Source: an uncultured Mycoplasmatota bacterium | GTDB taxonomy: Bacteria > Bacillota_I > Bacilli_A > RF39 > UBA660 | Length of the DNA: 64,000 nt | Assembly: GCA_900546715.1 (NCBI GenBank) | Contig: UREA01000001.1 | Location: 9,141 to 73,140, forward strand | Direction: 5' to 3' | Part shown: positions 7,089-7,501 of the stretch, piece after piece | How the letters are laid out: every line of letters starts with the position of its first letter | Numbering within the stretch: the first letter of the stretch is position 1 | Made by a program: the position numbers and the translations under genes | The notes under the pieces: model-generated | Databases searched by the model: none | What the model was told of the DNA's origin: nothing | Seen by the model: the letters and a program-made list of their open reading frames with translations, nothing else

Positions 7089-7148
7089 TAAAAAGTGATA
7101 AAAGTTTAATAAAAATTTAGTTAAAAACAAAAATCAAATAATTTTCTT

Positions 7149-7217
7149 TGTCGAATTTTGGCTTGTTTTGTCGAATCGTGTCGAAGTGCTTGCAAACAAA
7201 AAAATAACAGCTATAAT
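7149..7217 (+). promoter_or_regulatory. Three Spo0A-box heptamers (TGTCGAA) plus sigma-A promoter of small-ORF module A
   Basis: TGTCGAA at 7149-7155, 7169-7175 and 7179-7185 (spacing 20 and 10 bp), then TTGCAA (7190-7195), 16 nt, TATAAT (7212-7217). The same layout occurs at 12212-12280. Confidence 0.55.
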
Positions 7218-7327
7218 AGATAACCGTTACCTGTAATTGGTGCAGCGCCGACGGTCTTTTTAGCTAAAGACTCCAGGGGGTCATAGATATGATTCTTAAG
7301 AGGAGGTCAAGGTTGAGGAGACAGTTT

Positions 7328-7417
7328 ATGATTAGAATATTAAAATCCTATATCATGATAATTATTAATATTAAAATAAAATTTAGTATTAATAAGAAAG
7401 ACGCCACTAGAAAGTAG
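7328..7417 (+). CDS. Small ORF (29 aa), candidate type I toxin-like peptide, module A
   Basis: MIRILKSYIMIIINIKIKFSINKKDATRK with GAGGAG 7 nt upstream. Paralogous context to 12371-12457. Its 3' end is covered by a convergent antisense promoter and terminator. Confidence 0.35.
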   Translation: MIRILKSYIMIIINIKIKFSINKKDATRK

Positions 7418-7461
7418 CGCCAAACCAATTTCTGGCGTTACCCAATATGGGTAACACTTAC
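7391..7461 (-). ncRNA. Candidate cis-antisense sRNA (antitoxin-like), module A
   Basis: Minus strand: TTGTAA (7496-7491), 17 nt, TATATT (7473-7468). Downstream hairpins GTTACCC/GGGTAAC and CGCUAC/GUGGCG are followed by UCUUUCUUAUU. Overlaps the 3' end of the small ORF. Confidence 0.3.
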
Positions 7462-7501
7462 ATATATAATATACCAAATTTCAAAATAAATTACAAGTTA
7501 A

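Follow-up and report, generated by a model that had tools for sequence, protein, structure and literature searches.

The stretch of DNA considered here, called the window below, comprises 64,000 nucleotides of contig UREA01000001.1 from an uncultured Mycoplasmatota bacterium (GenBank assembly GCA_900546715.1). It carries two copies of an intergenic module, copy A at 7138-7496 and copy B at 12201-12547, in each of which a plus-strand promoter precedes a ribosome-binding site and a short open reading frame (ORF), and a minus-strand promoter faces back across the 3' end of that ORF, ahead of a small predicted antisense RNA with its own hairpin and U-tract terminator. A first-pass annotation, made from the letters alone, had likened this arrangement to a type I toxin-antitoxin (TA) locus. 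Comparison of about 57 distinct modules supports the layout, from which we infer the TA role, and suggests that copies A and B probably belong to an undescribed chromosomal family of type I TA-like loci.

A repeated module with conserved ends

The extent of the two copies was defined by pairwise alignment of 7100-7540 with 12170-12600 and by a repeat finder, both of which show conserved ends around a diverged middle. The 5' block (D2; 7138-7261 and 12201-12324) is 85% identical overall and over 90% identical in its first 105 nt, and the 3' block (D9; 7444-7496 and 12495-12547) is 92% identical. The 3' block drawn in the first-pass annotation therefore exists, but its real start lies at about 7444 and its end in copy B at 12547 rather than 12556; the preceding segment, 7395-7443, is only weakly alike between the copies, the terminator stem excepted. 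Further, 45-nt and 29-nt core motifs occur exactly twice each in the window, against none expected from shuffles, and a covariance model of the antisense RNA matches copy A (86.9 bits) and copy B (79.8 bits) only. The repeated module with conserved ends and a variable centre is thus borne out, the parts ascribed to copy A (both promoters, the ORF, and the minus-strand hairpin and U-tract terminator) are present where they had been placed, and copy B contains the full set (Table 1).

Table 1. Features of the two modules and of their surroundings in the window.
Feature	Position	Strand	Description and basis
GTCGAA boxes, copy A	7147-7185	+	three boxes, at 7150, 7170 and 7180 (spacing 20 and 10 bp), just upstream of the sense -35
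Sense promoter, copy A	7190-7217	+	TTGCAA-16-TATAAT
Predicted peptide mRNA, copy A	7224-7458	+	about 235 nt; fold, family duplex statistics, covariation
mRNA arms, copy A	7226-7251 (5' arm), 7433-7458 (3' arm)	+	pair with each other in the predicted fold
Ribosome-binding sequences, copy A	7300-7306, 7315-7320	+	GAGGAGG, GAGGAG
ORF, copy A	7328-7417	+	29 codons, MIRILKSYIMIIINIKIKFSINKKDATRK; A-type cationic peptide variant
Antisense promoter, copy A	7496-7468	-	TTGTAA-17-TATATT with TG extended -10
Predicted antisense RNA, copy A	7461-7390	-	about 70 nt; fold, covariation, covariance model
Antisense 5' hairpin, copy A	7457-7435	-	
Antisense linker, copy A	7434-7422	-	hypervariable
Antisense terminator, copy A	7421-7400 (hairpin), 7399-7390 (U-tract)	-	hairpin followed by TTTCTTATTA
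GTCGAA boxes, copy B	12233, 12243		before the sense promoter
Sense promoter, copy B	12253-12280	+	TTGCAA-16-TATAAT
Predicted peptide mRNA, copy B	12287-12509	+	with 5'-3' closing helix; fold
ORF, copy B	12371-12457	+	28 codons, MNEEHFVQLVIVIVLIILGKDNNKDANN; typical family peptide
Antisense promoter, copy B	12547-12519	-	
Predicted antisense RNA, copy B	about 12512 to 12436	-	5' hairpin, linker (12485-12468) and terminator (about 12467-12443, then U-tract)
argS	5087-6694	-	followed by a 110-residue ORF, then copy A
XRE-type helix-turn-helix (HTH) protein gene	7502-8146	-	followed by mgsA and a metallo-beta-lactamase-fold protein gene
Insertion sequence (IS) transposase gene	10378-11805	+	475-residue DDE ORF; weak IS240, rve_3 and IS66 domain matches

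Size and distribution of the family

The family was delineated by two independent motif scans of species-representative genomes, of which the 5' scan (GTCGAA-N4-GTCGAA-N3-CTTGCAA) recovered 24 loci and the 3' scan 82, giving a total of about 90 modules in about 30 assemblies. Almost all of the carriers are gut metagenome-assembled genomes (MAGs) labelled as uncultured Bacilli or Candidatus Onthocola (class Bacilli incertae sedis), and as far as sampled the family is restricted to these uncultured gut Bacilli (Candidatus Onthocola and relatives). Counts of exact matches to the 3' motif alone give 8-9 copies for several MAGs, the maximum being nine or more per MAG. Tandem arrays with a period of about 370 bp comprise three copies in each of L004 and L033 and two in each of L010, L012 and L067. 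No match to the module was obtained by blastn against plasmid and phage collections, nor by scanning viral contigs with the 3' motif.

A conserved predicted antisense RNA overlapping the end of the ORF

The 57 distinct minus-strand sequences align well (alignment A2), and RNAalifold recovers from them both a 5' hairpin and a terminator stem, with double compensatory changes in nine of the 13 pairs; for example, columns 57 and 97 pair as GC in 41 sequences and as AU in 13, and columns 55 and 99 as AU in 38 and as GC in nine. A T-run follows every terminator in the family alignment, on the minus strand only, and single-sequence folds of the antisense RNA reach z values of -4.3 to -4.7 (-4.7 in copy A). 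Upstream, the TTG of the -35 box is 99% conserved at a fixed 17-nt spacing, as against 40-70% at the adjoining spacer positions. The -10 region was part of the search pattern and its conservation is therefore not countable as evidence, but the -35 TTG was no part of that pattern. Taken at face value, the conserved sequence describes a predicted antisense gene with its own promoter and terminator, and the convergent promoters around the ORF, first noticed in copy A, keep fixed positions across the roughly 57 distinct modules.

The predicted antisense RNA measures about 65-100 nt across the family and overlaps the 3' untranslated region (UTR) of the mRNA along with the last six to nine codons of the ORF. 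In copy A its terminator hairpin (7421-7400) covers codons 25-29 and the stop codon and its U-tract extends to codon 21, and such an overlap with the ORF end holds family-wide. The 13-20 nt that separate the hairpin from the terminator, a linker or short hairpin, are hypervariable, with 63% identity among antisense RNAs that are at least 97% identical elsewhere. In the predicted folds the linker and its complement in the mRNA are largely unpaired, and we consider it a candidate recognition or specificity element that would keep the paralogues orthogonal.

A predicted mRNA closed by an end-to-end helix

The peptide mRNA is predicted to span 205-283 nt across the family. In 52 of the 53 modules listed, 8 nt separate the -10 box (TATAAT or TAGAAT) from an invariant GTTACC downstream, and the distance is 7-10 nt throughout. 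The first 25-30 transcribed nucleotides are complementary to a segment ending at the antisense start site, and whole-mRNA folds close a 5'-3' helix in copy A (-71.8 kcal/mol, z -5.9) as well as in copy B (-80.3 kcal/mol, z -8.4). Across the family, the mean duplex energy is -33.7 kcal/mol with the cognate 3' arm, -25.8 kcal/mol with 3' arms from other subfamilies and -12.9 kcal/mol with shuffled 5' arms, and the median rank of the cognate arm pair is within the best 8%. Additionally, RNAalifold on the joined arms finds compensatory changes in six of the 11 consensus pairs.

A multi-copy element at different loci, bearing an inverted repeat of 25-30 bp and, at copy B, lying about 400 bp downstream of an IS transposase gene, might be mistaken for a miniature inverted-repeat transposable element (MITE) with the two GTTACC-containing arms as its terminal inverted repeats. 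This is hardly credible and we reject it, in the first place on account of the internal position of the inverted repeat, beyond which the conserved sequence with both promoters reaches about 85 bp on one side and about 40 bp on the other, and in the second on account of a strand asymmetry. The plus-strand duplex is stronger than its minus-strand equivalent in 43 of the 53 modules (p=1.5e-8), as in copy B with -34.4 against -17.4 kcal/mol. Mismatches in the repeat are thus preferentially G.U on the plus strand, a signature at the level of RNA, and since the asymmetry can come only from G.U pairs it argues that selection acts on the RNA of the plus strand, as opposed to an inverted repeat in the DNA. 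Further, synteny across genomes is kept at the locus beside the HTH gene, and no target-site duplication was seen by eye at the module ends, where no systematic search was made.

Within the predicted folds the ribosome-binding site is paired with a mean probability of 0.74 across the family. In copy A the two ribosome-binding sequences pair with the upstream pyrimidine-rich leader, the site reaching a probability of 1.0 and the AUG 0.99. In silico, the structure of the mRNA would limit translation by means of this paired ribosome-binding site.

Several further structures lie in or near the mRNA. An AT-rich hairpin (GCATTTTAT...ATAAAATGT) with a T8 tract behind it occurs in tandem arrays just downstream of the closing helix, its loop containing the antisense -35 (L004:5900-5950, L010:3010-3060 and between the tandem copies of L012), and it is a plausible plus-strand terminator in these arrays. 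It is absent from copy A of the window, where the end of the HTH gene lies 5 bp beyond the -35 box. Copy A has a small GC hairpin at 7237-7260 (+), TTGGTGCAGCGCCGA followed by CGGTCTTTTT, about 13 nt after the predicted mRNA start. This hairpin is terminator-like and could cause early termination, or could form co-transcriptionally as a metastable competitor of the closing helix.

A different set of units (L002:1980-2200, L021:2002-2220 and L014:933-1372 on the minus strand) has the same promoter and GTTACC start, with a GGTAAC closing helix about 80 nt further on, and is devoid of both the family peptide and the antisense promoter. Those in L002 and L021 sit before a membrane protein gene and that in L014 resembles a stand-alone small RNA; these units may be relatives or ancestors of the module.

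A short predicted peptide with a hydrophobic core

An ORF of 22-29 codons occupies the same position in 61 modules, yielding about 50 distinct peptides, and is preceded at 6-9 nt by a strong ribosome-binding sequence (e.g., AAGGAGG, GGGG). The peptides begin with an acidic or polar N-terminus (MNEE, MNDN, MSEK, MKEE), continue into an I/L/V/F run of 6-14 residues (mean 10.4), that of copy B included, and usually finish with a basic tail (KKDADK, EKRR, EKRHRK); one subgroup stops directly after the hydrophobic run (MKEEIIKKLLVIIIMLLVIIMRLI). They conform to the short hydrophobic peptides of type I TA loci (less than about 60 residues), to which the copy A product corresponds weakly, with a run of five and a charge of +7.

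The coding signal of this ORF appears moderate but consistent. Over 101 equal-length pairs, the ratio of non-synonymous to synonymous differences (pN/pS) comes to 0.585 for the ORF frame, compared with 0.73 and 1.41 for the two others. In three of the four length classes the second codon position, at which T encodes hydrophobic residues, varies less than the other two, and in the fourth it ties with the first position. The stronger coding argument seems to come from the start codon, the ribosome-binding site and the frame, all of which are kept through extensive divergence of the DNA. The first-pass annotation had named conservation patterns at odds with coding selection as grounds for refutation; the patterns, with a moderate pN/pS of 0.585, instead favor coding.

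These data bear on a further possibility, namely that the ORF is incidental and the module specifies two non-coding RNAs, or a structured, helix-closed RNA from the plus strand. The plus-strand RNA is indeed highly structured, the codons for the C-terminal KDA coincide with the terminator stem, and the units of L002, L021 and L014 combine the promoter and the GTTACC...GGTAAC helix in the absence of such an ORF. Nevertheless, we regard this possibility as very improbable, given that about 50 distinct variants retain a start codon preceded at fixed spacing by a strong ribosome-binding site, that the hydrophobic character of the product is conserved and the second codon position constrained, and that pN/pS is lowest in the ORF frame.

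Some ORFs of the family are broken in homopolymer runs, as in L007 (one A missing; L001/L007) and in the second L012 copy at 1305-1714 (an extra T), and those of L055 and L079 are truncated or altered. These copies (L001/L007, L012, L055 and L079), and also L032 with its lost stop codon (see below), are either pseudogenes or errors of MAG assembly.

The peptide of copy A as a conserved subtype

The copy A peptide, here called A-type, aligns residue-for-residue with the MSEKLFFQLVIIIVIIIFG...KDATRK type and the leaders of the two are clearly homologous. In its core, IMIIINIKIKF, the hydrophobic run is broken by N and K, the longest remaining run being five residues. Its best 13-residue hydrophobicity is 1.85, as compared with a mean of 3.27 and a minimum of 2.05 in the rest of the family, its net charge is +7 (-2 to +6 in the rest) and its hydrophobic moment 0.40 (mean 0.25, maximum 0.44). 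The earlier remark that this peptide is less hydrophobic than that of copy B is correct, its 13-residue value being the lowest in the family.

The same remark went on to suggest that copy A may be decaying, and the low hydrophobicity, the family's highest charge and the run of only five residues would fit a one-time toxin gene in degeneration, drifting after the loss of its hydrophobic core, as would the loss of the stop codon (TAG to TGG) in the A-type copy of L032. Against this stands the distribution of changes among the A-type copies, found in the window and in three species-representative genomes: the protein is intact and identical in three of the four carriers (L010 and L022 in addition to the window), and the ORF body of L032 is identical too. 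Variable sites among the four copies number one in 87 in the ORF, compared with 12 in 104 in the leader (p=0.007) and nine in 19 in the linker. Further, the promoters, the ribosome-binding-site lock, the closing helix and the antisense RNA of copy A are all intact, and an open frame of 29 codons would be unlikely to outlast drift in such AT-rich sequence. Degeneration is hence distinctly improbable and the suggestion of decay unsupported; because the ORF is the best-conserved part of the module across four genomes, copy A looks like a conserved peptide subtype, not an obviously decaying one, whose activity may differ from that of typical members.

A longer reading of the copy A ORF, of 42 residues from the ATG at 7292, was set aside. 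The extra codons vary non-synonymously among the A-type copies (RRSR, RGLR, RGPR) and coincide with the ribosome-binding sequences, and they are therefore better read as leader.

Relationship to known type I systems

Over the whole window, Rfam yielded no match at gathering score, and over the module with E up to 10 it gave chance-level matches only, to unrelated Burkholderia and Acinetobacter small RNAs. Searches of Pfam and NCBIfam with 7-10 representative peptides and E up to 10 returned nothing above cut-off, one member having a sub-threshold NCBIfam match to Prli42 (E 0.0052; 16.5 bits against a cut-off of 27.5), and a profile search of the PDB with the family peptides gave no match. In the literature, no described type I system was found for this lineage. 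As Rfam, Pfam and the PDB have no match and NCBIfam a sub-threshold one only, the modules, two in the window and about 90 in about 30 assemblies, would constitute a new family of the type I TA kind that falls in no named family.

By layout, the closest group is that of TxpA/RatA and BsrG/SR4 of Bacillus subtilis (also BsrE/SR5 and YonT/SR6), judging from the sequence, and the parallel drawn earlier with these systems is apt. They share with the module the convergent genes, the 3'-side antisense RNA over the ORF end, a small hydrophobic peptide, a ribosome-binding site buried in mRNA structure and, by analogy, duplex-triggered mRNA decay as the likely outcome. However, there is no homology of peptide or RNA, and the module peptides, at 22-29 residues, are half the size of BsrG and TxpA (38-59 residues). 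The module also differs in its antisense RNA of about 70 nt (100-220 nt in those systems), in the long 5'-3' closing helix of its mRNA, in being chromosomal and multi-copy as opposed to prophage-borne, and in showing no SR4-type effect on the ribosome-binding site in silico. An antisense RNA on the 3' side that overlaps the ORF end is the Gram-positive type I layout (PMC8594479), and SR4 in particular overlaps the toxin mRNA 3' UTR and the end of the ORF (PMC3834814).

The par loci (Fst/RNA II, including SprA1/SprA1as) resemble the module in their mRNA of about 230 nt, small antisense RNA and peptide of about 30 residues, in the hydrophobic helix with a charged C-terminal tail, and in the convergent promoters. 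In RNA I of par, the extreme 5' end is taken up in an intramolecular helix and a stem-loop masks the ribosome-binding site (PMC7472228); the module mRNA likewise has its 5' end in an intramolecular helix, as indicated by covariation and the G.U asymmetry, and its ribosome-binding site hidden. By their signature, Fst peptides have a conserved Trp where the membrane helix gives way to the charged tail, and the helix contains a P/D/S/T-XXX-G(C) motif (PMC7472228), whereas there is no Trp in the roughly 50 module peptides and no P/D/S/T-XXX-G motif is conserved in their core. Moreover, the antisense terminator of the module works in one direction only, and the predicted mRNA continues beyond it for 60 nt or more; it must extend past the antisense T-run because the closing helix needs that segment. 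The pairing partner of the module 5' end is the extreme 3' segment of the mRNA, itself the antisense target, and no DRa/DRb-type second complementarity exists at the translation start. The comparison with fst/RNAII in the first-pass annotation is therefore the weaker one, a shared bidirectional terminator and a second interaction site both being absent.

In hok (fbi) and aapA1, the two ends of the full-length toxin mRNA interact over a long distance and give it a compact and poorly translated form. The hok/Sok and AapA/IsoA systems are thus like the module in their end-to-end mRNA helix, and also in occurring as multi-copy chromosomal loci. They differ in that the antisense RNA of the module lies at the 3' end, with no homology between the systems (Pfam) and no evidence of activation by 3' trimming in the module. 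In both systems the antisense RNA overlaps the 5' leader or the start region (PMC8594479), and the long-distance 5'-3' interaction is documented for the aapA1 mRNA (PMC6733600).

A model for the module and its alternatives

In the type I TA-like model, the sigma-A-type promoter behind the phased GTCGAA boxes would produce an mRNA of about 205-283 nt (about 235 nt in copy A), coding for a peptide of 22-29 residues that is presumed to act on the membrane. The closing helix and the sequestered ribosome-binding site would keep the unbound mRNA stable and poorly translated. The antisense RNA, ending at the 3' end of the ORF and complementary along its full length to the 3' UTR and a few final codons of the mRNA, would probably make its first contact through the largely single-stranded linker and the hairpin loops, with the linker preventing cross-talk between paralogues. 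Pairing could then displace the mRNA 5' end from its protective closing helix, and the resulting duplex of about 70 bp could mark the mRNA for cleavage by a double-strand-specific RNase.

A number of observations weigh against this model. At the translation start there is no further stretch that pairs with the antisense RNA (mean z 0.23, with none of 57 below -2, relative to shuffled and non-cognate controls), which makes a direct Fst-type translational block unlikely; antisense control of translation is therefore not indicated, and the decay mechanism is one that we purely infer. Control of ribosome-binding-site accessibility by the 3' region, in the style of SR4 or hok, was considered and rejected, the pairing of the site being unchanged without that region (0.74 versus 0.77); the closing helix consequently seems to concern stability or masking of the target and not ribosome access. 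Copy A has no clear plus-strand terminator, leaving the mRNA 3' end undefined, and its peptide is without a long hydrophobic run. In the family at large a hydrophobic core of 10-14 residues is short for a membrane span, and the coding signal (pN/pS 0.585) is moderate and may in part be accounted for by RNA-structure constraint. Finally, neither the peptides nor the RNAs have sequence or profile similarity to known type I toxins or antitoxin RNAs in Rfam, Pfam, NCBIfam or the PDB.

The structural evidence in its entirety would fit equally well a benign gene for a small membrane protein under cis-antisense tuning, such as a non-toxic modulator of a membrane complex. The chromosomal location of the modules, their absence from the phage, plasmid and viral collections and the syntenic stability of one locus are likewise in keeping with such a gene. 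However, we hold this to be unlikely on the following counts. The modules reach nine or more paralogues per small MAG and form tandem arrays, peptide types turn over rapidly at one locus, frameshifted copies occur, and a hypervariable recognition linker distinguishes near-identical paralogues, all of which is typical of selfish or addictive type I loci and not of a housekeeping small protein; and the heavy translational locking points to a product that must stay off.

Within the preferred type I TA-like reading, a more specific and decidedly tentative proposal, itself unlikely to hold in full, is that the module works as a three-way RNA switch, for which type I systems offer no described precedent. 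The antisense RNA would compete with the 5' end of the mRNA, of which it is a near-copy, for one and the same 3' segment of that mRNA, and the linker would serve as an address code for about ten orthogonal paralogues per genome. Binding would both create the cleavage substrate and strip the 5' protection, and the A-type peptide, which is cationic and amphipathic with no membrane-span-like core, may have gained a new function in place of that of a classic pore-forming or membrane toxin.

Genomic setting, GTCGAA boxes and other repeats

The neighborhood of copies A and B is ordinary chromosome. Copy A lies between the argS-adjacent ORF and the XRE-type HTH gene, and copy B between the transposase ORF, about 400 bp upstream, and an alpha/beta hydrolase gene. 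The argS-side flank of copy A is common to L004, L010, L012, L024 and L067, and the HTH-side flank to L013, L016, L020 and L037. The interval between the argS-adjacent ORF and the HTH gene (window 6300-8300) is a hot spot, in which related genomes hold one to three tandem modules of differing peptide types, a pattern that fits duplication and replacement through recombination between the conserved module ends.

The GTCGAA boxes ahead of the sense promoter are conserved in most modules. Direct repeats of (T)GTCGAA with 10-bp phasing are also found at unrelated promoters, namely at 22771-22786 (-) in the window, ahead of a heavy-metal ATPase-like gene that begins MKKIVLKISGMTCSACSS, and in related genomes (L006, L015, L018, L002 and L021), ahead of a miaB-like gene and of a membrane protein gene. 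The repeats look like the binding site of a lineage-specific transcription factor, and their phased direct arrangement suggests one of the response-regulator type.

Other repeats of the window are of different kinds. Three head-to-tail 33-bp repeats (consensus approximately ACTTTTTGAnnAAAATTGCATGTTTTTGGCACC) occupy 15037-15141, at the 3' end of the ORF 15140-15985 (-). Asn/Asp-rich low-complexity repeats occur at 58266-58548 and 59542-60229, the latter with an internal duplication (59636-59777 versus 60088-60229; spacing 452 bp, 71% identity), and these are probably repeat domains of a large surface protein.

Implications for the lineage

With at least nine copies per MAG, the family is among the most repeated non-coding or small-gene elements in this lineage of uncultured gut Bacilli, and it can serve as a marker for annotating small genes and small RNAs overlooked by gene callers in these MAGs. 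Its specialist features are the end-to-end helix that shares its target with the antisense RNA, the hypervariable address linker and the high copy number; it is a natural example in which the Gram-positive 3'-overlap layout is joined with an end-to-end mRNA helix. With its roughly 57 distinct modules the family lends itself to comparative study of the diversification of antisense specificity among paralogues. Should the peptides prove toxic, they would rank with the shortest type I toxins of Firmicutes, and the orthogonal antisense/linker pairs could serve as compact RNA regulatory parts.

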